In this document: piece after piece, positions 35,112 through 54,469 of the stretch | Layout: every line of letters starts with the position of its first letter | How positions within the stretch are numbered: the first letter of the stretch is position 1 | Assembly (NCBI GenBank): GCA_964586925.1 | Contig: CAZPJI010000009.1 | Location: 3,683-67,682 of the forward strand | Length of the DNA stretch: 64,000 nt | Direction of reading: 5' to 3' | DNA from: an uncultured Gammaproteobacteria bacterium | Lineage (GTDB): Bacteria > Pseudomonadota > Gammaproteobacteria > JAKDMP01 | Translations under genes and position numbers: made by a program | Notes under the pieces: generated by a model | The model's database searches: none | The model's input: the letters and a program-made list of their open reading frames with translations, nothing else | Told to the model about the DNA's origin: nothing

Positions 35112-36077
35112 TCATCGAGATATTGCCACCTTCGATGCGCTCAAAATGGGGTTTGATCGAGACCGTTTACCTGTGCCGGTAAGCGTCACGTAACCGGCAC
35201 CGAGAATCGCTCCGTACACGAGGCTGAGCACCAGTAAAAGTGCGACGCCTACCCATCCGAAACGCCATGCGAAGAGACCGGCGTGTCCGAGAGGCGCAAC
35301 TGTCAACATAGCGAGCAACCAGGCGCCGAAACCGAATAAGGCACCACGTACGGCTGAGTGGCCCGGGAGGTGCGGATAGAGCCAGGCGAAGGCCAGCCCC
35401 CCGATGACGATTGCCGCAATGAGGAATATCATCCATCCGCCGATAACACCTGTATGGGTGGCTTTGCCGATCAGCATCGCTGGGTCGAGCCCCGGCAATA
35501 CACCGTTTAGTGTCTTGAGCAGCAGGATGGCGCTGAGTGCGGCAGTCGCCATGAATGCGGCGCCTCCGCCGCCCAACCAGCGGTTGAGGTCTGCGTATGC
35601 GAGCGTTGAGTCGGCGGGTTTGAAGCCACTCGGGAAAAGCCGTGTGAGCAAGTGATCCAGAGAGAGCCGGCCCGGGCCGTAAAAGGTCAGTGCCAATAGC
35701 ATGAGTCCCCAGGCTTGGTGGTCCGGGAAACCCGTTGACCAGATGTCGGGGTAAGATGCGACGGCAATGATGTTGTAGACGAACAGGAAACCGGAAACGT
35801 ATCGCCCCATCAGACCGAAAGCCAGAAGCGCCGGAAACACGAGTTCTGCGAAAGTGCCGGTATAAGCGGCGACGGCAGGGCTGAGCAGGGGAGTGTGGTA
35901 GACGTATTTAAACAGCGCAATAGTGCCGGGCATGTCCGCAATTTTGGTCAACCCGGAACGGAAAAAGGCTTCGGCGATCCATAGTCTCATGAGAAGCATG
36001 GCAAGGGGTGTCGAATAGGCGAGCCAAGCGTTCACCCGTTGGGATAATCCCAGTCCGCTTCGTACGATGTTCTTCAT
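35112..36077 (-). CDS. DoxX-family integral membrane protein (bufferin-operon BufD-like)
   Basis: Multiple TM helices. DoxX-like N-terminus (LAMLLMRLWIAEAFFRSGLTKI). The ATG at 36077 with a GGAGA RBS is preferred over 36140. Confidence 0.75.
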   Translation of the reverse strand: MKNIVRSGLGLSQRVNAWLAYSTPLAMLLMRLWIAEAFFRSGLTKIADMPGTIALFKYVYHTPLLSPAVAAYTGTFAELVFPALLAFGLMGRYVSGFLFVYNIIAVASYPDIWSTGFPDHQAWGLMLLALTFYGPGRLSLDHLLTRLFPSGFKPADSTLAYADLNRWLGGGGAAFMATAALSAILLLKTLNGVLPGLDPAMLIGKATHTGVIGGWMIFLIAAIVIGGLAFAWLYPHLPGHSAVRGALFGFGAWLLAMLTVAPLGHAGLFAWRFGWVGVALLLVLSLVYGAILGAGYVTLTGTGKRSRSNPILSASKVAISR

Positions 36078-36862
36078 CTTGATTCTCCGAGTGTCGATGT
36101 GGCGGCGAAGATGCCAGCCGTATGGTGGCGTTGTAAGCACGCCTCAAGGTCGAACGAATCGCTCGATTCTTCGGCGCATGCCAGTGCCGCAGTCAAGCAC
36201 GCCCCGTTCGCGCAGGCGTCGAGAAACACATACTCTCCGGCATCCAGTGCCAGTACCAGAACGTCGTCATGAGGTCGTACGATCAAAACGCGCTCGCTAC
36301 CAGCGTTCAGCGCAGGTGGTTCGCCGGGCTCGTCCTCGAGGCAGTAACGCCACAGCGTCAGGACCGGGTATTGAGACGCCACAAGCCGGACGCTCGGATG
36401 GATCGGCAGCCGTTCGTTGCCGGGGAGAATCGAGGCCGGGTCGAATGGATTGGCGTCGGCCGCGAGCAGCGCTTCCTGTCGTGCCCATTCGAGCCGGGCG
36501 ATGTCGGCCAGATAGGGGATATTTGCCGCCTCGGGAAGGTGAGCCAGAAAATCGGCGAAGCCGGCACCGTATCGATTGAGATCTCCGTACGAGGAAGGAT
36601 GTGCGCCTACGAAACGTTGGGTGGCGCCTTCGAAAAAGTCGTCGCCCACGAGTCGCGCCACGGCGGGGAAGCTCGTAAGCAGGGCATCGGTGAAATTGAG
36701 CAGGTAACTGTTGCGGTACACGGCCATGCGTGCTGCTGGCGTCAGTCCGGCGCCGTGCACCCATTGCAGCACGCGGCTATCTTCGCCGCGAACGTGGCGG
36801 ACAAATTCCTGCTGGGTTTCAAGCAGCGCAGGCACGTGTTCTCTCCAAAATCGACTCGGCAT
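36074..36862 (-). CDS. DUF2063 domain protein (MNIO partner, BufC/MbnC-like)
   Basis: N-terminal DUF2063 signature (LTPAARMAVYRNSYLLNFTDALLTSFPAVARLVGDDFFEGATQRFVGAHPSSYGDLNRYG). It overlaps the 3' end of the DUF692 gene. Confidence 0.8.
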   Translation of the reverse strand: MPSRFWREHVPALLETQQEFVRHVRGEDSRVLQWVHGAGLTPAARMAVYRNSYLLNFTDALLTSFPAVARLVGDDFFEGATQRFVGAHPSSYGDLNRYGAGFADFLAHLPEAANIPYLADIARLEWARQEALLAADANPFDPASILPGNERLPIHPSVRLVASQYPVLTLWRYCLEDEPGEPPALNAGSERVLIVRPHDDVLVLALDAGEYVFLDACANGACLTAALACAEESSDSFDLEACLQRHHTAGIFAATSTLGESR

Positions 36863-37697
36863 GATTTGCTTCGTCCAACAGGGTCTCCAGCGGCGGGATG
36901 TCGCGGTCCCACTCGATCAGGGTCGGTCGCGGTCCCAGGCGCCCGATGGCATGGGTATAAAGATCCCAGACCGGCGTCGCGACGCGCCTGCTGTGCGTGT
37001 CGATGAGTAGGGTCACGCCTTGCACATCTTTGCGAATGTGTCCGGCAAGATGAATTTCCTCGATCGCTTTGACCGGCATCGCGTTCAGATAGTGGTATGC
37101 GTCGAAAGCGTGGTTGACCGCGTTCACGTAGATATTGTTGATGTCGAGCAGAATGCCGCAGCCGCTGCGCTGAGCGAGTTCTGCCAGAAATTCCCATTCC
37201 GGGATGATTGAGTCTGTGAATTCAAGGTAGCTGGATACGTTCTCGATCAGGATTCGCCGGCCGAGAAATTCCTGCGTCTGCTCGACGCGTTCAACGATGT
37301 GGGTAAGCGCCTCCGCCGTATAGGGCAGGGGCAGGAGGTCGTTAAGGTGTACGCCTCCGGCAGCACCCCAGCATAGATGCTCGGAAACCAGGCCGGGAGA
37401 AAACCGATCGACCAGGGACTTTAATTGTGCAAGATGCATGTCGTCGAGCGGGTCCGTCGAGCCCAGTCCCAGGCCTACCCCATGCAGGCTCAGCGGGTAC
37501 TCGCAACGCACTTTTTCCAACAGTCGCAATGTCGGACCACCGGCGGCAAAAAAGTTTTCGCTATGGACTTCAATGAAACCAACTGCCGGTCGACGCTCAA
37601 GTAGTTGGGAGTGATGCGGCGGCCTGAGGCCGATCCCGGCGTGTGCCGGGATCGACTCCAGTGCCGGACACGAATGCTGTCGCGCCGGGGATGACAT
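36819..37697 (-). CDS. DUF692 / MNIO (multinuclear non-heme iron-dependent oxidase, MbnB/BufB-like; TIM-barrel)
   Basis: GIGLRPPHHSQL...VGFIEVHSENFFAAGG...YPLSLHGVGLGLGS...VSEHLCW...DLLPLPYT...RRILIENVSSYLEF matches the HI1600/MbnB family consensus. Confidence 0.85.
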   Translation of the reverse strand: MSSPARQHSCPALESIPAHAGIGLRPPHHSQLLERRPAVGFIEVHSENFFAAGGPTLRLLEKVRCEYPLSLHGVGLGLGSTDPLDDMHLAQLKSLVDRFSPGLVSEHLCWGAAGGVHLNDLLPLPYTAEALTHIVERVEQTQEFLGRRILIENVSSYLEFTDSIIPEWEFLAELAQRSGCGILLDINNIYVNAVNHAFDAYHYLNAMPVKAIEEIHLAGHIRKDVQGVTLLIDTHSRRVATPVWDLYTHAIGRLGPRPTLIEWDRDIPPLETLLDEANHAESILERTRACAA

Positions 37698-38008
37698 CAG
37701 CCGGCGTTACCGGGTGTGGTGCTGCCGCCCGCGATCTTATGACATAGCCCCGCCGGAACGAGCAGAAATGCGCTCGGATCGCGGGCCTTTTTATCCTGTC
37801 CGGCGCAGGAGTGCCCCGGCGATTGGCAATCGTTCTTGAAGGCCGCGTTGATGCCGTAGCATTTTTCCATGCTGGTGCTGGTGGGCATTGTTTTCATCGC
37901 GTGTGCCTGGCTCATGTTGCCGGCAAAAGCGCCTTGAGTGCCCGCAAGAGTGCTTGCCGCGACGAGGCTGGCAAGGGCCGATTTGATGACGAGTGAACGT
38001 TTATCCAT
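37697..38008 (-). CDS. DUF2282-type Cys-rich secreted precursor peptide (bufferin BufA-like)
   Basis: 104 aa. Sec signal peptide (MDKRSLVIKSALASLVAASTLAGTQGAFA), then a core with four Cys in the conserved pattern EKCYG-x8-NDC-x5-HSCAG-x17-GLC. RBS GGAGA ahead of the ATG at 38008. An ATGA overlap couples it to the MNIO gene. Confidence 0.75.
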   Translation of the reverse strand: MDKRSLVIKSALASLVAASTLAGTQGAFAGNMSQAHAMKTMPTSTSMEKCYGINAAFKNDCQSPGHSCAGQDKKARDPSAFLLVPAGLCHKIAGGSTTPGNAG

Positions 38009-38079
38009 GAAAATATCTCCAATAAATACAAGTACATAAAAGTCACAACCCGCTTTGTTATTGGGATGCAACTGCGAGT

Positions 38080-38107
38080 TAGTCGGGTGAAAGATAGATT
38101 CCTTACA
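38080..38107 (-). promoter_or_regulatory. Candidate ECF-type promoter (GTAAGG-N15/16-CGAC) about 70 nt upstream of the precursor gene
   Basis: The reverse complement reads tGTAAGGaatctatctttcaccCGACtaac. It resembles the GTAACC-N16-CGAA class of ECF promoters. This is inference only. Confidence 0.3.
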
Positions 38108-38481
38108 AAAATTCCACTGCATGGCAGATTTAGAGGAACAACAGGGGATGCTCACCCCTCGCCCTTTTCATAAGAGACTGTTTTCTCCGCCGGATGGCAT
38201 AAGGACTATTTAGCCCGGTGGGGCTGAGGGCTACCTGGACCGTTCCCGGCTTTCAGGCACGGCCAAGTGAACGATAGTCTTGGGGGCGCGGGGGGATGAA
38301 TAAGTTGGCCGTGGGCTTTGCGACAGTAACCCGAGAAGAGTCGTTCGCTGATCCGCCAGGACGGATCTCGAGGGTTATGGAGTACCAGTCAAGTGTTTTC
38401 TTTTGCGCCTTCGCGAGCTGCATTCCTTGCCGGCCTATCACCGGGTCGTCAGCGTCGAGGGCCGGGTCGCTGCCTTCCTGC

Positions 38482-46907: not shown

Positions 46908-47501
46908 CTAGCCGCGTGACCAGACCAGACAGCGGTTGTTGGCGGGCATGGCGGCATCGGCTCGAAGCGAAAAGCCTGCGCTGCGCGCCAGGGCGTCAAC
47001 GGCTTCGAAATCGCGGATGCCCCGGTGCGGTACCTGCCTTTTAAGCCACTCATCGAAAGCGGCGTTACTCTTGCTGGTGAAGCGGCCGCCGTAGTTGAAA
47101 GGTCCGTAAATCACGATCCTGGCATTTTCGGCGAGCAGCGTGCCGTTACCCGCGAATAGCCGTTCTACTTCCGGCCAGCTCATGATGTGCAGTGTGTTGG
47201 CGCTGAATAGCGCATCGTAGCCGCCGACCGGCCAGTCGGCATCGTTGACGTCGAAACTCAAGGGCGCCGGTGTGTTGTCCAGTCCTGCAGCAACGAGCCT
47301 GGACGCAAGGTCCGGGAGGTTTTCCGGGCGTTCCGTAGCCTGCCACTGTAAATGCGGCAGGGCGGCCGCGAAATATTCGGCATGCTGCCCGGTGCCGCTG
47401 CCGATTTCGAAGACCCGTGTGCAGTCGGCGAAATGCTCCCGCAGCACGGCGAGAATGGGATCGCGGTTACGTTCGCAGGAAGGAGAACTCGGCAGCGTCA
47501 T
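46908..47501 (-). CDS. DUF938 family class I SAM-dependent methyltransferase-like protein
   Basis: 197 aa. Motif I VFEIGSGTGQHAEYFA. The small DUF938 architecture. Confidence 0.7.
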   Translation of the reverse strand: MTLPSSPSCERNRDPILAVLREHFADCTRVFEIGSGTGQHAEYFAAALPHLQWQATERPENLPDLASRLVAAGLDNTPAPLSFDVNDADWPVGGYDALFSANTLHIMSWPEVERLFAGNGTLLAENARIVIYGPFNYGGRFTSKSNAAFDEWLKRQVPHRGIRDFEAVDALARSAGFSLRADAAMPANNRCLVWSRG

Positions 47502-47519
47502 GCAATAAGCGTAACAGGC

Positions 47520-47948
47520 TTACTGGAAGCAGCTATCGGGTTGTCGCCCCAGAACCCGAAAGAGCAGCATGCCGCCGGCCAGGCCGAGCGTGAATACCAC
47601 TGCCTCCCATGATCCCTGGGCCATGGCCGCGATGCCGGGTCCGGGGCAGAAGCCGCCGAGGCCCCAGCCGATACCGAATAGGGCGGCGCCGCCAATGAGT
47701 GGAATGTCGATGTACTTGCGAGTAGGCAGCTGAAAGCCTCCGCCGAGCAGTGGGTGGGGACGGCGCAGGATAAAGTGGAAGCTGATCAGGGTTACGAGCA
47801 CGGCTCCGCCCATGACCAGGGCCAGGGTCGGGTCCCACGTGCCGCTGAAGTCCAGGAAATCGATGATCTTCGCCGGGTTGGTCATTTGCGCCAGCGCGAG
47901 CCCGAATCCGAACAGCAGGCCCGAGGCGAGACTGATGAGATTCTTCAT
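47520..47948 (-). CDS. YeeE/YedE family sulfur-compound transporter, half-size subunit (DUF6691-like)
   Basis: 142 aa, 4 TM helices, and the conserved GGFCPG loop. The ATG at 47948 with a GGAG RBS is preferred over 48056. Confidence 0.75.
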   Translation of the reverse strand: MKNLISLASGLLFGFGLALAQMTNPAKIIDFLDFSGTWDPTLALVMGGAVLVTLISFHFILRRPHPLLGGGFQLPTRKYIDIPLIGGAALFGIGWGLGGFCPGPGIAAMAQGSWEAVVFTLGLAGGMLLFRVLGRQPDSCFQ

Positions 47949-48382
47949 CAGAAGACTCCGAACAGGTGACGCAGTGTGAACACGGTCAGCGTGCCGGTGG
48001 CCATAAAGGTCAGCGTCGCGACCAGGGAACGCATGGAGAGGCGTCCCAGGCCGCATACGCCGTGACCGCTGGTGCAGCCGCAGCCCATGGCGGTGCCGTA
48101 ACCTACGAGCAGTCCGGCTAACAGGAATGTCGGCCAGGGCAGTGCGGCGTGGAATGCGCGGTGGCCGGGCACCAGCCAGAATTCAAGGGCGGCGCCGCCG
48201 ATTAGGCCTAGCAGGAAAAGCCAGTCCTGCATGCGCGTCTTATCAGGGCGGTGCAACGCACTATCGAAGATTCCGCTGACGCCGGCGATTTTGCCGTTCA
48301 GCCCAAGCAGCAGCGTGGCCGAGACGCCGATGAATAATCCGCCGATGAACCCGCTGACCGGTGTGAAATTGATGATGGTCAC
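47948..48382 (-). CDS. YeeE/YedE family sulfur-compound transporter, half-size subunit
   Basis: 144 aa, 4 TM helices, and the conserved Cys loop GCGCTSGHGVCG. GTG start. An ATGA-type overlap couples it to the downstream half. Confidence 0.75.
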   Translation of the reverse strand: MTIINFTPVSGFIGGLFIGVSATLLLGLNGKIAGVSGIFDSALHRPDKTRMQDWLFLLGLIGGAALEFWLVPGHRAFHAALPWPTFLLAGLLVGYGTAMGCGCTSGHGVCGLGRLSMRSLVATLTFMATGTLTVFTLRHLFGVF

Positions 48383-49287
48383 AGGTTGTCGGACTTCTTG
48401 CCGGTGATGGTGGAGAAGGCCTGGGGCTGGTTGAGCGGCACCTTGATGTAGCGGGCGCCATTGTCTTCGGGGGGCGGAAAATCGCCGCCCCGGACGTTGA
48501 GCTGCACCGATGGAATGATCAGCGTGGGCAGGTCGAGCGTCCGATCGCGCTCGTTGCGCATGGCGATGAAATCCTTCTTGTCGCGTCCGTGACCGACATG
48601 GATGTTATGGCGTTTCTCGTCGCCTACGGTCGTCTCGTTCATGTGCTCCCGGCCGCCGGGGGCGTAGTCGTGCAATACGAAGAGACGGGTCGAATCGGGC
48701 AGGGCGAATACGCGCTGGATCGAATCGTAAAGCGTGGCCGCATCGCCGCCCGGGAAGTCGCACCTTGCGGTGCCGCCGTCCGGCATGAACAGGGTGTCGC
48801 CGACGAAAGCGGCGTCGCCGATCAGATAGGTGAGGTGATCCGGAGTGTGGCCCGGAGTAGCGATGGCTCGTGCTGGGATATTGCCGACCTTGAAGCTTTC
48901 TCCGTCCTCGAACAGGTGGTCGAACTGCGAGCCATCGGGCTGGAACCCGCGCTCCAGGTTGAATACGTCGCGGAAATGTTTCTGTACGTTCCGGATACCC
49001 TTGCCGATGCCCAGGGTGCCGCCGGTCCTGGATTTGACATAGGTACCTGCAGCAACGTGATCGGCGTGTGCGTGGGTCTCGAGGATCCATTGCACCTCCA
49101 ATCCCTGTTCTTTCAGGAACAGCAGGATCTGATCGGCATAATGCGTGGAGGTGCGTCCCGAGATGGCCTCGTAATGCATGACGCTGTCGATCACGGCCGC
49201 CTTGCGGGTATCTTCGTCCCAGACCACGTAGGAAAAGGTCGAACTCTCAGGATGGAAAAATGCCTTGATCAGGGGGATGTCAGCCAT
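48379..49287 (-). CDS. MBL-fold metallo-hydrolase, probable persulfide dioxygenase (ETHE1/Blh-like)
   Basis: HxHxDH motif (ETHAHADH) with downstream His/Asp metal ligands. 302 aa. It sits in a sulfur-handling gene context. Confidence 0.65.
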   Translation of the reverse strand: MADIPLIKAFFHPESSTFSYVVWDEDTRKAAVIDSVMHYEAISGRTSTHYADQILLFLKEQGLEVQWILETHAHADHVAAGTYVKSRTGGTLGIGKGIRNVQKHFRDVFNLERGFQPDGSQFDHLFEDGESFKVGNIPARAIATPGHTPDHLTYLIGDAAFVGDTLFMPDGGTARCDFPGGDAATLYDSIQRVFALPDSTRLFVLHDYAPGGREHMNETTVGDEKRHNIHVGHGRDKKDFIAMRNERDRTLDLPTLIIPSVQLNVRGGDFPPPEDNGARYIKVPLNQPQAFSTITGKKSDNL

Positions 49288-49380
49288 GTAACTGTGATTT
49301 CACGAAATGAGAATAATTTATTAGACAACACTAAATTAGTCAAGTAAAATGAATAAAACCGGCTCCGCAGGTACCCGTAA

Positions 49381-49749
49381 TTGGCTAGGAAACAGACTGC
49401 ACCTACTCTAGAGGAAGACCAGGCCCAGCCCTCTTCGCAGGACATAGCCCAGATGGAAGACCACGCCAGCGATGCGGCACATTTGCTTAAGCATCTTGCG
49501 CACGAGTCACGGCTGCTGATTCTTTGTCTGCTCTGGGAAAGGGAGTTGACCGTCGGCGAAATCAATGAGCGCGTACAGCTAAGCCAATCGGCACTCTCCC
49601 AGCATCTCGCTCTGCTACGCGAGAAGGGGCTGGTCAGCAGCCGCCGGCAATCACAGAATATTTTTTACAAGCTCGCCGATCCCAAGACATTACGGATTCT
49701 TGCCACGTTGCATGAGCTGTACTGTAGGGATGGAGGTAAGAAACCCTGA
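49381..49749 (+). CDS. ArsR/SmtB-family transcriptional regulator, BigR/SqrR-like two-cysteine (persulfide-sensing) type
   Basis: wHTH region LAHESRLLILCLLWERELTVGEINERVQLSQSALSQHLALLREKGLV. One Cys in helix alpha2 (ILCLL) and one near the C-terminus (ELYCRDG) match the SqrR/BigR sensor pair. The start is ambiguous: TTG at 49381 or ATG at 49453. Confidence 0.65.
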   Translation: MARKQTAPTLEEDQAQPSSQDIAQMEDHASDAAHLLKHLAHESRLLILCLLWERELTVGEINERVQLSQSALSQHLALLREKGLVSSRRQSQNIFYKLADPKTLRILATLHELYCRDGGKKP

Positions 49750-49757
49750 TTTATGCG

Positions 49758-50546
49758 TTGATCGGAGCTTTGTGCGTAGGTTTGAGTCTGGGTCTTCTGG
49801 GTTCGGGCGGATCGATCTTGACCGTGCCCGTACTCGTCTACCTATTGCACCAGTCACCGAAGGTGGCTATTGCGGGTTCCTTGGCCATCGTAGGCGCCAT
49901 CGCTTTGATTGGTGCTGCACGCTACGCGCACCAGGGCCTTGTCAGTTGGCGTCATGTCCTGCTGTTCGGCCTACCGGGCGTGTTCGCGACCTATGGCGGG
50001 GCCTGGGTGTCGAAGTTCGTGCCGGGCACCGTTCAGTTGGTGGTATTTGCCCTGGTCATGGCGCTTGCCGCCTGGGGCATGTTGAAGTCCCCGGTGAAAA
50101 AGCCTTCCGCGGAGGATGAAACCGGTCATGCCGAGAAGCCCCTCTTCTGGCTGATCATGGCGGGACTGGGGGTTGGGATCATTACCGGTTTCGTTGGGGT
50201 GGGCGGCGGTTTCTTGCTGGTGCCGGCCCTGGTCTTCCTCGGCGGATTGCCGATGCATAGGGGGATCGCGACGAGCCTGGCGGTGATTGTGATCAATTCG
50301 GCCAGTGGGTTTTACAAGCAGTTCGATGTCGTCACCGGTGCAGGGCACTCGCTCGACTGGCGCGTTATCGGCATTTTCATCCTGGTGGGTGGCATTGGCA
50401 GCCTGGTCGGCAACACCATAGCCCGTCGTATTCCCCAGCACCGCTTGCGCCAGGTGTTTGGAGTGTTTCTGATCCTGATGTGCGGTTTTATCCTTTGGCG
50501 GACAGTGCCAGAATTGCTGCACCATGCGGGATTGCATCATGTCTGA
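49758..50546 (+). CDS. TauE/SafE (DUF81) family sulfite/anion exporter
   Basis: 262 aa, 7-8 TM helices, and the duplicated motif GSGGSILTVPVLVYLL / GVGGGFLLVPALVFL. TTG start. Confidence 0.8.
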   Translation: MIGALCVGLSLGLLGSGGSILTVPVLVYLLHQSPKVAIAGSLAIVGAIALIGAARYAHQGLVSWRHVLLFGLPGVFATYGGAWVSKFVPGTVQLVVFALVMALAAWGMLKSPVKKPSAEDETGHAEKPLFWLIMAGLGVGIITGFVGVGGGFLLVPALVFLGGLPMHRGIATSLAVIVINSASGFYKQFDVVTGAGHSLDWRVIGIFILVGGIGSLVGNTIARRIPQHRLRQVFGVFLILMCGFILWRTVPELLHHAGLHHV

Positions 50547-50571
50547 CCCTATCCGAGGAGGAGTGTTTACT

Positions 50572-51021
50572 ATGCCGCTCGAGGTTCGTCATTTACCCAA
50601 TCTGAAGCAGCCCGAAGAGAACCTATTCAGCTGCGGGCAGCCAAGCCGTGAAGCGCTCGAGGCGCTGTGCAAATCGGGATGCGAGGTGATCGTCAATTTA
50701 TGCCCGCCCGCGGAGTGCGGGGATTTCGACGAAGCCGACTGTGTGCGTCAACTGGGACTTACCTATCACAATATCCCGATCGCGGGACCCGGTGATCTCG
50801 GGCCGGAAGCAGTGGATGCGCTCGACCGCATCCTGCAAGAGGCGGCCGGGCGGCCGGTCGTCATTCACTGTGCGAGCGGCAATCGCGTGGGCGCGTTGCT
50901 GGCGTTGCATGCCTGCTGGAAACGGGGCACAAGCCCGGAAGAAGCGATTGCCTACGGAGAGAAATCGGGACTGACATCGCCCGGGCTGCGCGATGCGGTG
51001 TTGCGGATTCTGAAGCGCTGA
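50572..51021 (+). CDS. DUF442 / TIGR01244-family protein-tyrosine-phosphatase-fold sulfurtransferase-like domain protein
   Basis: CX5R active-site loop VIHCASGNRVG. About 150 aa. In BigR-regulated Blh proteins this is the domain fused N-terminal to the MBL hydrolase. AGGAGG RBS at 50553-50558. Confidence 0.65.
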   Translation: MPLEVRHLPNLKQPEENLFSCGQPSREALEALCKSGCEVIVNLCPPAECGDFDEADCVRQLGLTYHNIPIAGPGDLGPEAVDALDRILQEAAGRPVVIHCASGNRVGALLALHACWKRGTSPEEAIAYGEKSGLTSPGLRDAVLRILKR

Positions 51022-51072: not shown

Positions 51073-51106
51073 AAAAAAAGGGGCCGCATTGCGGCCCCTT
51101 CGCTTT
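51073..51106. terminator. Bidirectional rho-independent terminator between convergent genes
   Basis: AAAAAAA-GGGGCCGC-ATT-GCGGCCCC-TTCGCTTTT. An 8-bp GC stem with an A-tract on one side and a T-tract on the other. Confidence 0.7.
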
Positions 51107-51127: not shown

Positions 51128-54100
51128 TCAGTCGTTACCACCGCAGGTGGTCTTGGCCGGGCACGGTGGATAGTTCGGCTGCGGCGGGTAGGCCGGTAGC
51201 CAGGACGGCTGCGCCGGCAGTTTCACCGGATGCGCCTCGATCTTCTGCATCAGGACGTCCACGGCCGTCTGCAACTGCGGGTCTTTGCCCGACATCACGG
51301 CTCCTGGTGTGTTGTCGACCTTGATGTTCGGCTCCACCCCCACGTTTTCGACGATCCAGGCAGACTTGGTGTCGTACATCGATTCCTCGGGAATCGTGAT
51401 GTAGCCGCCGTCCATCAGCGGCCAGTAGCCGCGGATGCCGCGTACGCCACCCCAGGTGCGTTCGCCGATCGCCGGGCCGAGGCCCATCTGCTTGAACTTC
51501 CAGGGGAAGATGTCCCCGTCGGAAGCCGAGTAGTGGTTGATCAGAACGGCCTTGTAGCCGAGGGCGATCGCGTTCTGTGGCGCCGGACCGTCCTGGCGGC
51601 CGGCGAACAGCGACACCAGTTTGCGCTTCAGTCGTTCGAGCACGATGGGGTCGATGAACCCGCCGCCATTGTAGCGGTCATCGATGATCAGGCCCTGTTT
51701 CATCAGCTGCGGGTAGAACTGACGCATGAACTGGTCCATACCGAGCTCTTCCATGTCGCTGAGATAGATATAGCCGATCTTGCCCCCGGAAAGCCGGTTC
51801 ACTTCCTCGCGGTTGTGCTTGATCCAGGCATGCAGCCACAAGGGCAGGGCGTTTTTGATCGGCTTGACCCGGATCGTCCACGCGTTGCGGCCTGCGGCGT
51901 TATCCGCAAGCTTGAGCGTCACGGTGGTGCCGAGCGTATTGACCAGGAAGCGATACGGGTTTTCCGGTGCCCTCAGCTCCTGACCGTTGATGGCGAGTAC
52001 GTAATCGCCTTCGGCAACCTTCATGCCCGGTTGATCCAGCGGGGCGGTGTAGCCGTCAAGGGTATTGTCACCCTTGTAGATGCGGGAGAAGTAATACCGG
52101 CCCGATTTGGCGTCGAGCGCGAAGTTGGCGCCGAGCATGCCGGTGCCGATGTACTTCGGTGCGTCCGGAGTGTCGCCGCCACCCACGTAGGTATGACTGT
52201 TCTGCAGCGAACCGATCATCTCGCCGATCAGGTAGTTGAGATCCTGGCGGCAGGTGACCAGCGGCAGCAGCGCGGCGTAGCGCTTGCCGATCGCGTTCCA
52301 GTCCTTGCCGTTCATCTTGGGGTTGACGAAGAAGTTGTGCTCCAGGCGCCAGGCGTTCCAGTACATCTCCTTCCACTCCGCCACCGGATCGACCCGCATC
52401 TGCATGTGTGACAGGTCCAGCTTGTCGCCGCTGCCGTCGCTCATATCGGCGGAACGGATATACCAGTCGTTTCCGGTCTGGTAAAGGAGGGACTTGCCGT
52501 TGGCGGAGAGGGCAAAGTCGCTCACCCCGGCCACCAGTTGCTTGCCTTTGCGCTTGTCCATGTCATAGGCCATGAGCGCGGGCGTTTCGCCGGGCAGCGT
52601 GTTGCCGAGGATCGGATTGGGGTAAGTGGTGTAGAAGACGACGCCGTTGGATTCGGCCACGTTGCCGATGTTGGCCGTCGGCACCGGCAGGGGCACGGCG
52701 CGCTGGGCGAGGCCGTCGAAGTCGATCTTCACGCGGACGGGGCCCTTGCTTTTCGCGCTTTTGCCGGTCTTCCCGTTTTCCGTGGCGCTTGCCTGACGCG
52801 GGGCGAATGGCGACGGGGTCCCGGCCTCGAGGGTGGTCACGTAGAGGCCGTCCGGTTTCATGTTGGCCACGTTGAATTCGTTGCTCGAGAAGGCCGGGTT
52901 CTGGTGCCGCGCGGAGACAAAGTAGAGGTATTTGCCATTGCTGGAGAACACCGGATTGGAATTGTCGAACCACGAGTTCGTGACCTGGTGCACGGAATGC
53001 GAACTCACCCCGTAGATGAACAGGGCACGCATGCCGTTGGGCTGGGACTCGGAATAAGCGAGCCAGCCGGAGTCGGGCGAGAAGGAGAAGTCCTTCATCT
53101 CGCGCCACTTGTCATGTGCGACCTTGAACATCTTGCGCGAGGCCACATTGAGCAGCCACAGCGTCTTGGAACTGTCGGAGAAGGCCATCCATTTGCCGTT
53201 CGGGGACCAGGTGGGGCCGTAGTAGGAGCTGTCGTCGGTCGAGGTCAGCAGGGTTTCCTTGCCGCCGGTCGCCGGGCGCATCGCAATTTCGCTTGCGCCG
53301 CTGGCATCGGTGACGTAGGCGACCGTCTTGCCATCCGGACTCCACGACGGGTACTGTTCGCGGGCGCCGGTGGTCTGTGTGATGTCGGTGGTATCCCCAT
53401 GCTTTGCCGGAACCGTGAAGATGTCCCCGCGGGCGCCGAAGACCGCCAGCTTGCCGTTCGGGGCAATGTCGGCCGAGCGGATCATCTGACTGGCGTCATA
53501 CCAGTACGGCCGGGTGCGGATGCCGTCATTGGGTACGGTCACCGGCACCTCGACGAGCTGCTCGGAAGGCAGCTTCAAGACGTAAAGCTTTCCCTGGTCG
53601 GCGAAGGTGATACCTGTGTTGCCGAGGCTGGGCCAGTCAACGTCGTAATTCTTGAAGTGCGTGACCTGGCGGAACTGCTGTGTCTTCAGCGAGTAGGCCC
53701 ACAGATTCATGGTGTGGTTAGGCCCCTCGTCAGATGCATAGTAAATCGTGTCGCCGAACCACATCGGGTCGATGTCGCTGCCTTTCCAGTGCGTGATGCG
53801 GTCTACTTTCTTGGTCTTGAAATCGTAGGTCCAGACGTCCTGCGCCAGGCCACCGTAGTAGTGCTTCCAGGTACGGAAATTGCGGAAGATGCGGTTATAG
53901 GCGATCTTCGTGCCATCGGCGTTAAAGCTAAGCATTCCCCCCTTGGGCAACGGCATTGCGATCGGCAGACCACCGTCCACGGGGACTTCGAACAGGCGCC
54001 CGAACCACGAGTTGTAGGTATCGCGACGGCTGAGGAATACGATGTCCTTGCTGTCCCGGGTCCAGGTCACGACCATGTTGTTGGGTCCCCAGCGCATGGG

Positions 54101-54469
54101 GGCATGGGGCGTGACGTCGGAATCGTAAGTCAGGCGTTTGACTTGGCCGCCATCGGCTGGCATGACGTAAACATCGGTCTGGCCAGCATACTCGCCCGTG
54201 AAGGCGATCCACTTGCCGTTTGGTGAAAAGCGCGGCATTTGGTCGTAGCCGGGATCGGCGGTCAGGCGGTGGGCCTCGCCGCCGGTCATACCGACTTTCC
54301 ACAAGTTGCCACCGGCTTCGAAAACGATGCTGTTGCCATGCAGGGTGGGGAATCGTACGAGAGCCTGCTGGCTTCCGGTCTGGGCCTGCGCGGCGGCAGG
54401 CAGCAGCAGTAAGGCAAGAAAACTTGCGCCTGCACTGAGCAGGGCGAGGCGGCGGGAACAAAACATCAT
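51128..54469 (-). CDS. Tricorn protease homolog (TolB-like beta-propellers + PDZ + S41 C-terminal peptidase), periplasmic
   Basis: 1113 aa. Signal peptide. The N-terminus has repeated WD40/TolB-like blades (SPDGKWIAF, SPDGKTVAY, SPNGKWMAF). The C-terminus has the S41 domain with catalytic Ser (GASDGDIFP). Confidence 0.75.
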   Translation of the reverse strand: MMFCSRRLALLSAGASFLALLLLPAAAQAQTGSQQALVRFPTLHGNSIVFEAGGNLWKVGMTGGEAHRLTADPGYDQMPRFSPNGKWIAFTGEYAGQTDVYVMPADGGQVKRLTYDSDVTPHAPMRWGPNNMVVTWTRDSKDIVFLSRRDTYNSWFGRLFEVPVDGGLPIAMPLPKGGMLSFNADGTKIAYNRIFRNFRTWKHYYGGLAQDVWTYDFKTKKVDRITHWKGSDIDPMWFGDTIYYASDEGPNHTMNLWAYSLKTQQFRQVTHFKNYDVDWPSLGNTGITFADQGKLYVLKLPSEQLVEVPVTVPNDGIRTRPYWYDASQMIRSADIAPNGKLAVFGARGDIFTVPAKHGDTTDITQTTGAREQYPSWSPDGKTVAYVTDASGASEIAMRPATGGKETLLTSTDDSSYYGPTWSPNGKWMAFSDSSKTLWLLNVASRKMFKVAHDKWREMKDFSFSPDSGWLAYSESQPNGMRALFIYGVSSHSVHQVTNSWFDNSNPVFSSNGKYLYFVSARHQNPAFSSNEFNVANMKPDGLYVTTLEAGTPSPFAPRQASATENGKTGKSAKSKGPVRVKIDFDGLAQRAVPLPVPTANIGNVAESNGVVFYTTYPNPILGNTLPGETPALMAYDMDKRKGKQLVAGVSDFALSANGKSLLYQTGNDWYIRSADMSDGSGDKLDLSHMQMRVDPVAEWKEMYWNAWRLEHNFFVNPKMNGKDWNAIGKRYAALLPLVTCRQDLNYLIGEMIGSLQNSHTYVGGGDTPDAPKYIGTGMLGANFALDAKSGRYYFSRIYKGDNTLDGYTAPLDQPGMKVAEGDYVLAINGQELRAPENPYRFLVNTLGTTVTLKLADNAAGRNAWTIRVKPIKNALPLWLHAWIKHNREEVNRLSGGKIGYIYLSDMEELGMDQFMRQFYPQLMKQGLIIDDRYNGGGFIDPIVLERLKRKLVSLFAGRQDGPAPQNAIALGYKAVLINHYSASDGDIFPWKFKQMGLGPAIGERTWGGVRGIRGYWPLMDGGYITIPEESMYDTKSAWIVENVGVEPNIKVDNTPGAVMSGKDPQLQTAVDVLMQKIEAHPVKLPAQPSWLPAYPPQPNYPPCPAKTTCGGND

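Follow-up and report, generated by a model that had tools for sequence, protein, structure and literature searches.

We analysed a stretch of 64,000 nucleotides (nt) from an uncultured gammaproteobacterium (contig CAZPJI010000009.1), hereafter called the window, in which seven adjacent genes very probably form a regulon of the BigR/PigS/HlyU type that responds to persulfide (sulfane sulfur), with two divergent operons. To judge from their sequences they encode a two-Cys regulator of the ArsR family, a type II persulfide dioxygenase (PDO2), a pair of half-size membrane transporters (YedE1 and YedE2), an exporter of the TauE/SafE family, a stand-alone sulfurtransferase of the DUF442 type and a methyltransferase of the DUF938 family. 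Our analysis documents the gene content, the operon structure, the conservation of functional residues, an operator-like sequence block between the operons and the recurrence of the gene set across genomes. The closest named relatives of the window proteins come from metagenome-assembled genomes (MAGs) named 'Gammaproteobacteria bacterium' and from genera of the Nevskiales, and the best identity of the dioxygenase to GTDB species representatives was 61% among the matches listed. The locus is an uncultured gammaproteobacterial addition to BigR-type persulfide-response gene sets that have already been described.

All seven open reading frames (ORFs) that a preliminary description of this DNA had placed at 46908-51021 are present and form two divergent transcription units around an AT-rich control region. 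The regulator gene is indeed divergent from the gene of the metallo-β-lactamase (MBL)-fold dioxygenase and the two yedE genes, while tauE and duf442 lie downstream of it on the plus strand, which gives the orders pdo2-yedE1-yedE2-duf938 on the minus strand and regulator-tauE-duf442 on the plus strand. The GTG start of yedE1 overlaps the stop codon of the dioxygenase gene by 4 bases (GTGA), the ATG of yedE2 at 47948 overlaps the yedE1 stop by 1 base (TGATG), the DUF938 gene begins 18 nt past yedE2, and tauE begins 8 nt past the regulator stop codon. The ATGA coupling originally described for the two yedE genes has to be corrected to this 1-base overlap, the 4-base junction being that between the dioxygenase gene and yedE1. 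A hairpin at 51077-51101 with an 11-bp stem, 8 GC pairs and a T-run was called on the minus strand (plus-strand continuation TTCGCTTTT) and likely ends the plus-strand operon as a bidirectional terminator. Six of the seven proteins score above the curated cut-off of a Pfam family that fits. The profile searches gave fitting matches for PF06080, PF20398, PF00753, PF01022 and PF01925, and scores just under the cut-off for PF04143 and PF04273.

The regulator matches PF01022 with 53 bits (cut-off 22) and contains exactly two Cys residues, Cys49 and Cys115, which are 66 residues apart, in alpha-2 and the C-terminal helix. Its best solved relatives are HlyU of Vibrio cholerae and Vibrio vulnificus (E-value 2e-24), SqrR of Rhodobacter capsulatus (4e-21) and BigR of Xylella (4e-20). 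In phmmer alignments to the structures 4k2e, 13ct/6o8k and 3pqj both Cys fall on the sensing pairs of HlyU, SqrR and BigR (C42/C108 in BigR), as the preliminary description had stated for SqrR and BigR. A lack of conservation of this pair among orthologues had been named beforehand as evidence against a persulfide switch, and it was not seen: both Cys are invariant in 120 of the 120 best homologues (55-93% identity) though many other positions vary, and 29 of 35 ArsR regulators next to PDO2 in other genomes, which are more distant at 36-58% identity, keep them as well. On the NCBIfam BigR model NF040642 the protein scores 97.3 bits, under the equivalog cut-off of 155. Because the Cys pair is aligned and conserved while the BigR score stays under its cut-off, we place the regulator in the wider BigR/SqrR/HlyU persulfide-sensor group and do not regard it as a strict BigR orthologue. 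Its gene probably starts at TTG 49381 (122 amino acids, aa) rather than at ATG 49453 (98 aa), since the ATTGGC around TTG 49381 is invariant in relatives, downstream indels are in frame (3 nt, in two relatives) and Shine-Dalgarno-like sequences (AGGT/AGGAG) lie upstream. Gene callers differ on the length of the regulator, with 88, 98, 121 or 122 aa.

Depending on this start, the intergenic region measures 93 bp (TTG 49381) or 165 bp (ATG 49453). The interval 49288-49452 proposed earlier as intergenic DNA holds for the ATG start and shrinks to 93 bp under the favoured TTG start. In an intergenic alignment of four lineages, positions 49317-49350 (TTATTAGACAACACTAAATTAGTCAAGTAAAAT) are the sole long conserved stretch. 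This block includes a 9-bp palindrome, CTAAATTAG, in which the related locus L085 differs at the central base alone, so that the palindrome is kept. It overlaps two predicted sigma-70-like promoters that face each other (plus strand, TAGACA-17-TAAAAT; minus strand, TTGACT-17-TAAATT) and covers the -35 boxes of both. The 24-nt core of the putative operator occurs once in the window, with 0 occurrences expected by chance. An 11-mer of the block, ACTAAATTAGT, recurs unchanged in the V. cholerae HlyU operator (sequence from PMC10054925), for which we roughly estimate a chance probability of 0.001-0.03. A regulator dimer bound to the block would obstruct both promoters, and we favour repression because the predicted operator overlaps them. 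The window-specific inverted repeat GAATAATTTA/TAAATTAGTC was also considered as an operator and dropped, its left arm not being conserved in relatives. Neither known RNA elements nor tRNAs were found in the window.

The dioxygenase matches PF00753 and resembles PDB entry 9g8t (E-value 9e-111), the PDO2/SdoA enzyme of Pseudomonas putida (4ysk/4ysl, 2e-101) and 4efz (4e-94); it is ~60% identical to P. putida PDO2 (4ysk) over its full length. The alignment to 4ysk shows that the metal ligands H72/H74/D76/H77 (HxHxDH), H147 and D164 are all conserved, as are the residues R175, Y208, R244, R247 and L256 of the glutathione pocket. The published residue list for type II persulfide dioxygenases (PMC5584763), D78, H149, D170, R181, Y214, R250, R253 and L262 in P. 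putida numbering, of which R250, R253 and L262 are type-II-specific, corresponds to D76, H147, D164, R175, Y208, R244, R247 and L256 of the window protein. An MBL protein devoid of such residues had been named in advance as a finding that would speak against the assignment; all listed residues are conserved, and we class the protein as a type II persulfide dioxygenase. The differences to the P. putida enzyme, a C-terminus 8 residues longer and a loop after residue 159 that is 4 residues shorter, leave the listed functional residues unaffected.

The preliminary description regarded the dioxygenase and the DUF442 protein as an unusually split form of Blh, which it took to contain a rhodanese domain in addition. 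Blh consists of DUF442 and an ETHE1-type dioxygenase only, without an extra rhodanese domain (PMC5823870). On the NCBIfam Blh model NF040641 (cut-off 625 bits) the window dioxygenase covers only positions 141-421 with 379 bits, and the DUF442 protein positions 4-125 with 37 bits. The two are indeed separate genes on opposite strands, but this is not unusual. We surveyed the neighbourhoods of 80 loci with the closest PDO2 homologues among the matches listed, and PDO2 usually stands alone: the 80 are all matches of ~280 residues, and a minority has a DUF442 gene nearby, a separate one with a CRTGxR or CASGNR loop standing beside PDO2 in seven genomes.

Both small membrane proteins are the published PmpAB/YedE1E2 pair in its standard architecture. 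YedE1 scores 24.8 bits (E-value 2e-5) on PF04143, just below the gathering cut-off of 27, over the region expected, and YedE2 scores 141 bits on PF20398 (DUF6691). Hydropathy gives about four hydrophobic segments for each, in agreement with the earlier statement that they are halves with four transmembrane (TM) segments, and the motifs quoted there, GCGCTSGHGVCG and GGFCPG, were both found. Cys103 and Cys110 of YedE1, in the motif GCTSGHGVCG, are invariant in 26 sequences, and Cys101 of YedE2, in GGFCPG, is invariant in 27 homologues. The family profile of YedE1 matches residues 220-323 of the S. thermophila TsuA/YeeE structure (E-value 1e-5), with Cys103 on the cysteine of the GGCNIGH loop. 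PmpA and PmpB are ~130-aa proteins with four helices that match the C- and N-terminal halves of YeeE, carry one conserved Cys each and were proposed to form a heterodimer; that the DUF6691-type subunit corresponds to the N-terminal half is likewise taken from the literature (PMC11582611). YedE1E2 of Cupriavidus pinatubonensis imports zero-valent sulfur in a manner coupled to PDO2, with one essential Cys per subunit (PMC10812762). The window pair shares with these systems the adjacent genes of ~140 aa, the ~four TM segments and the co-occurrence with pdo (PMC10812762; PMC11582611), and the essential residues C104 of CpYedE1 and C101 of CpYedE2 correspond to C103 and C101. No notable difference was seen, and identity to PDO2-linked pairs of other genomes is ~45-50%. 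The transporter is thus split into two genes, as first noted, but this is not unusual: it is a published two-gene transporter (PMC11582611; PMC10812762; PMC7315123) that is present at 42 of the 80 PDO2 loci, the two genes always together.

The TauE protein clearly belongs, by its match to PF01925 (163.9 bits, cut-off 32.6, profile positions 3-234 of 237), to the TauE/SafE family. The DUF442 protein scores 25.0 bits on PF04273 (cut-off 26.1), 28.8 bits on PF22741 and 34.5 bits on TIGR01244 (cut-off 85.85). Among solved structures it comes closest to the DUF442 protein 3gxg (E-value 2e-9), in which HCLANYR (C-X4-R) aligns with the HCASGNRVG loop. This loop is almost invariant, and Cys100 and Arg105 are invariant in 95 of 95 homologues, nearly all of which carry a precomputed PF04273 match and, in their source, names such as 'TIGR01244 family' or 'sulfur transferase domain'. 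We therefore assign the protein to the DUF442 sulfurtransferases as a divergent member. Its start, previously put at 50524, is most likely the ATG at 50572, 8 nt behind an AGGAGG Shine-Dalgarno sequence. 'Dissociated' DUF442 rhodanese-type proteins have been described, which stimulate PDO and limit the build-up of sulfane sulfur (PMC9163753). The DUF442 protein of this clade is unusually rich in Cys, with 8 in 149 aa, and the seven beyond Cys100 are common to only ~10 of the 95 homologues.

The clustering is not due to chance, as the gene set recurs in related genomes and, without DUF938, in an unrelated one. Three related metagenomic lineages (L082/L083/L084, L085/L086 and L087/L088) share the flanking genes for Kup, an aldo-keto reductase, a tricorn protease and OmpH, and their regulators are 77-84% identical to that of the window. 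L082, L083, L087 and L088 carry all seven genes, with an unchanged order in L082, L087 and L088, whereas the short contig L084 is cut off within the PDO gene. Six genes, without DUF938, recur in an unrelated gammaproteobacterial MAG (L002), where regulator-tauE-duf442 likewise face pdo2-yedE1-yedE2 in a divergent layout. Beyond these relatives, a BigR-like regulator is found near PDO2 at 35 of the 80 loci and TauE at 14 of the 80.

The cluster was initially called an island. Horizontal acquisition as an island was rejected, since relatives have syntenic flanks and the cluster as well, with identities of 68-93% for the cluster proteins. Since flanks and cluster are syntenic, the cluster is an old resident of this chromosome region and not a recent island. 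The dip in GC content at 48.5-50 kb reflects nothing more than the AT-rich control region together with the regulator gene. Coordinates of all features are compiled in Table 1.

Table 1. Genes and predicted control elements of the cluster, in window coordinates
Feature	Position	Strand	Remarks
DUF938/METTL26-family S-adenosylmethionine (SAM)-dependent methyltransferase	46908..47501	-	197 aa; PF06080
YedE2/PmpB-like half-transporter, DUF6691	47520..47948	-	142 aa; PF20398
YedE1/PmpA-like half-transporter	47948..48382	-	144 aa; PF04143, E-value 2e-5
Type II persulfide dioxygenase, PDO2/SdoA type	48379..49287	-	302 aa; one domain; opens the minus-strand operon
Conserved AT-rich operator/promoter block (predicted)	49317..49350		Intergenic alignment of relatives
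Two-Cys ArsR-family regulator, BigR/SqrR/HlyU group	49381..49749 (alternative start 49453)	+	PF01022
TauE/SafE-family anion exporter	49758..50546	+	262 aa; TTG start; PF01925
Stand-alone DUF442-type sulfurtransferase	50572..51021	+	149 aa; match to 3gxg; HCASGNRVG loop
GC-rich hairpin, likely bidirectional terminator	51077..51101		Between the convergent DUF442 and tricorn-protease genes

From characterised homologues we infer each biochemical step, the choice between repression and activation, and the inducer. BigR loses DNA binding once sulfide or polysulfide bridges its two Cys (PMC5823870), and HlyU does so upon persulfide bridging of its Cys pair in a persulfide-specific tetrasulfide switch (PMC10054925). 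We propose that the reduced dimer of the two-Cys ArsR protein would sit on 49317-49350 and repress both operons. On oxidation by persulfide or polysulfide, Cys49 and Cys115 would become joined within the molecule by a di- to tetrasulfide, which would release the DNA and switch both operons on. The YedE1/YedE2 heterodimer may then move zero-valent sulfur across the inner membrane onto glutathione (GSH), the DUF442 protein would transfer sulfane sulfur to or from glutathione and so yield glutathione persulfide (GSSH), and PDO2 would convert GSSH and O2 to sulfite and GSH. TauE would finally export the sulfite, or possibly thiosulfate. The functional reading as a sulfur module, already put forward in the preliminary description, agrees with every sequence test available, with the exception of the DUF938 gene, whose membership finds no support beyond one clade.

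Several observations weigh against a persulfide-responsive regulon of this kind. No sqr gene, for sulfide:quinone oxidoreductase (SQR), was found within ~10 kb of the cluster, and the persulfide would therefore have to come from import or from another locus. The sole argument for repression is the position of the operator, and HlyU, the best structural relative of the regulator, is known as an activator. The regulator also scores under the BigR equivalog cut-off. The DUF6691 profile gave no match to TsuA, and hhalign between the two YedE halves gave a probability of ~1%. Finally, L085 and L086, which stem from two independent samples, have lost both YedE genes and retain of the PDO gene only a remnant of 47 codons (L085 7764-7907, L086 1197-1340), which keeps residues 1-13 and 46-70 before a junction. 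The clade can therefore do without the oxidative arm; the operator, the regulator, TauE, DUF442 and DUF938 are kept at both loci.

It is unlikely that the cluster serves sulfur acquisition instead, with YedE1E2 as importer of sulfane sulfur or thiosulfate, sulfite from PDO2 feeding assimilation, and TauE as an overflow valve or importer. The lack of a nearby sqr gene would suit such a function, and so would the properties of the transporters, since YedE1E2 imports and does not export zero-valent sulfur (PMC10812762), and full-length YeeE/TsuA is an assimilatory thiosulfate importer (PMC11582611). However, the regulator is of the persulfide-stress type and not a CysB-type regulator of sulfur starvation, no cys genes are adjacent, and derepression of the homologous operon of Acinetobacter baumannii protects from sulfide toxicity (PMC7315123). 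We consider it more improbable still that the regulator is a HlyU-like activator or anti-silencer that persulfide switches off, so that the genes would be on when reactive sulfur is low, even though HlyU is its best-scoring solved homologue and shares 11 nt of its operator with the conserved block. This block lies on both predicted -35 boxes, the arrangement of a repressor site, and the characterised regulators linked to PDO and YedE, BigR of Xylella, Agrobacterium and A. baumannii, are all repressors (PMC5823870; PMC7315123). Moreover, to turn detoxification off as persulfide rises would be physiologically senseless. It is highly improbable that the regulator is a conventional ArsR/SmtB sensor of metals or metalloids with sulfur genes next to it by coincidence: it passes the generic NCBIfam 'metalloregulator ArsR/SmtB' subfamily model (86 bits, cut-off 55), but its sequence has neither the alpha-3 CxC motif nor the alpha-5 His/Asp set of metal ligands, its sole two Cys are the BigR/SqrR pair, and the same type of regulator adjoins PDO2 in 35 of the 80 genomes surveyed.

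Within the proposed persulfide regulon, the DUF938 gene needs separate consideration. The protein matches PF06080 with 225 bits (cut-off 27) and conserves the SAM-binding motif EIGSGTGQH; no close solved structure was found. Human METTL26 belongs to DUF938, and no substrate is known for the family (PMC8662637). Its earlier inclusion as a part of the sulfur module could not be upheld, as the linkage is confined to one clade. DUF938 is present at none of the 80 PDO2 loci, and in a survey of 80 DUF938 loci from metagenomes (43 with a length of 6 kb or more) cluster genes appeared at one locus, which is of the same clade; these counts rule out a general association of DUF938 with sulfur metabolism. 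ORF clustering of these loci (L088-L167) revealed no dominant conserved neighbour of DUF938, the largest cluster comprising 11 loci and many ORFs being spurious. Since the link does not recur outside the clade it is weak evidence, and DUF938 is probably a lineage-specific passenger. In every clade member, however, it closes the regulated operon, and judged from its position it would be co-transcribed with the PDO operon. In L085 and L086 it overlaps the PDO remnant by ATGA and lies directly behind the operator; it thus stays coupled to the regulated promoter even in a relative without PDO and YedE genes. On this basis there is a slim chance that DUF938 was functionally recruited into the persulfide regulon of the clade, possibly to S-methylate sulfide, persulfide or a thiol as a disposal route, and the layout of these loci leaves selection for its expression from the regulated promoter weakly open. 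DUF938 proteins are very strongly conserved, being 55-70% identical across Gamma- and Betaproteobacteria, with > 8000 matches, and an alignment of 25 sequences has 55 invariant columns, including an N-terminal RNR motif.

Comparison with characterised systems shows how little of the locus is new. The products of the canonical bigR operon are Blh, BigR and three membrane proteins, among them an exporter of sulfite (PMC5823870; PMC4018554). The window has the same functional parts list as this operon of Xylella fastidiosa and Agrobacterium tumefaciens: a two-Cys ArsR protein, a GSSH dioxygenase, DUF442, two half-size YeeE/YedE proteins and a TauE-type exporter. In contrast to the single bigR operon its genes are arranged in two divergent operons, DUF442 and the dioxygenase, one polypeptide in Blh, are separate genes on opposite strands, the regulator, at 97 bits, misses the BigR cut-off of 155 and matches HlyU and SqrR with slightly better scores, and the DUF938 gene is extra. 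In A. baumannii BigR represses a yeeE-yedE-pdo2 operon (PMC7315123), with which the window shares stand-alone PDO2 and a two-gene YeeE/YedE under a two-Cys BigR-type regulator, without SQR in the operon. The window differs by the order pdo-yedE1-yedE2, by TauE and DUF442 behind the regulator and by DUF938 behind yedE2. The A. baumannii operon has its own counterpart in the PigS/pmpAB-blhA locus of Serratia, with which it is compared (Gristwood 2011, cited in PMC11582611). With HlyU of V. cholerae and SqrR of R. capsulatus the window regulator shares the fold and the Cys pair, and ACTAAATTAGT is common to the HlyU operator and the window. While HlyU activates a haemolysin gene and SqrR controls photosynthesis and sqr genes, the window regulator lies, like BigR, within a cluster of PDO, YedE and TauE genes. 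Thus, the parts list is already known from the bigR operon and the PDO2/YedE arrangement from A. baumannii, and the sole non-standard element is the clade-specific DUF938.

Two other gene groups of the window were noted. A tricorn-protease homologue of 1113 aa (51128-54469, minus strand), with PD40 repeats, Tricorn_C1, PDZ_Tricorn and Peptidase_S41, directly adjoins the cluster and has the same position in all relatives. A gene set of the bufferin/MbnB type for a ribosomally synthesised and post-translationally modified peptide (RiPP) lies at 35112-38155 on the minus strand. A small secreted precursor that contains Cys lies inside ORF 37697-38155 (MDKRSLVIKSALASL...CYGINAAFKNDCQSPGHSCAG...), and the other members are an MbnB/TglH/ChrH (DUF692) enzyme (36819-37697, PF05114, 364 bits), a partner ORF of 262 aa (36074-36862) and a membrane protein (35112-36140).

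Beyond annotation the locus matters little, as it adds one more uncultured gammaproteobacterial lineage with a BigR-type persulfide response. It documents a divergent layout of six genes shared by at least one further genome, and the clade-specific operon link of a METTL26-family methyltransferase remains as a thread to follow. The conserved operator block and its match to the HlyU operator could help to define the DNA motif of this branch of ArsR sensors.

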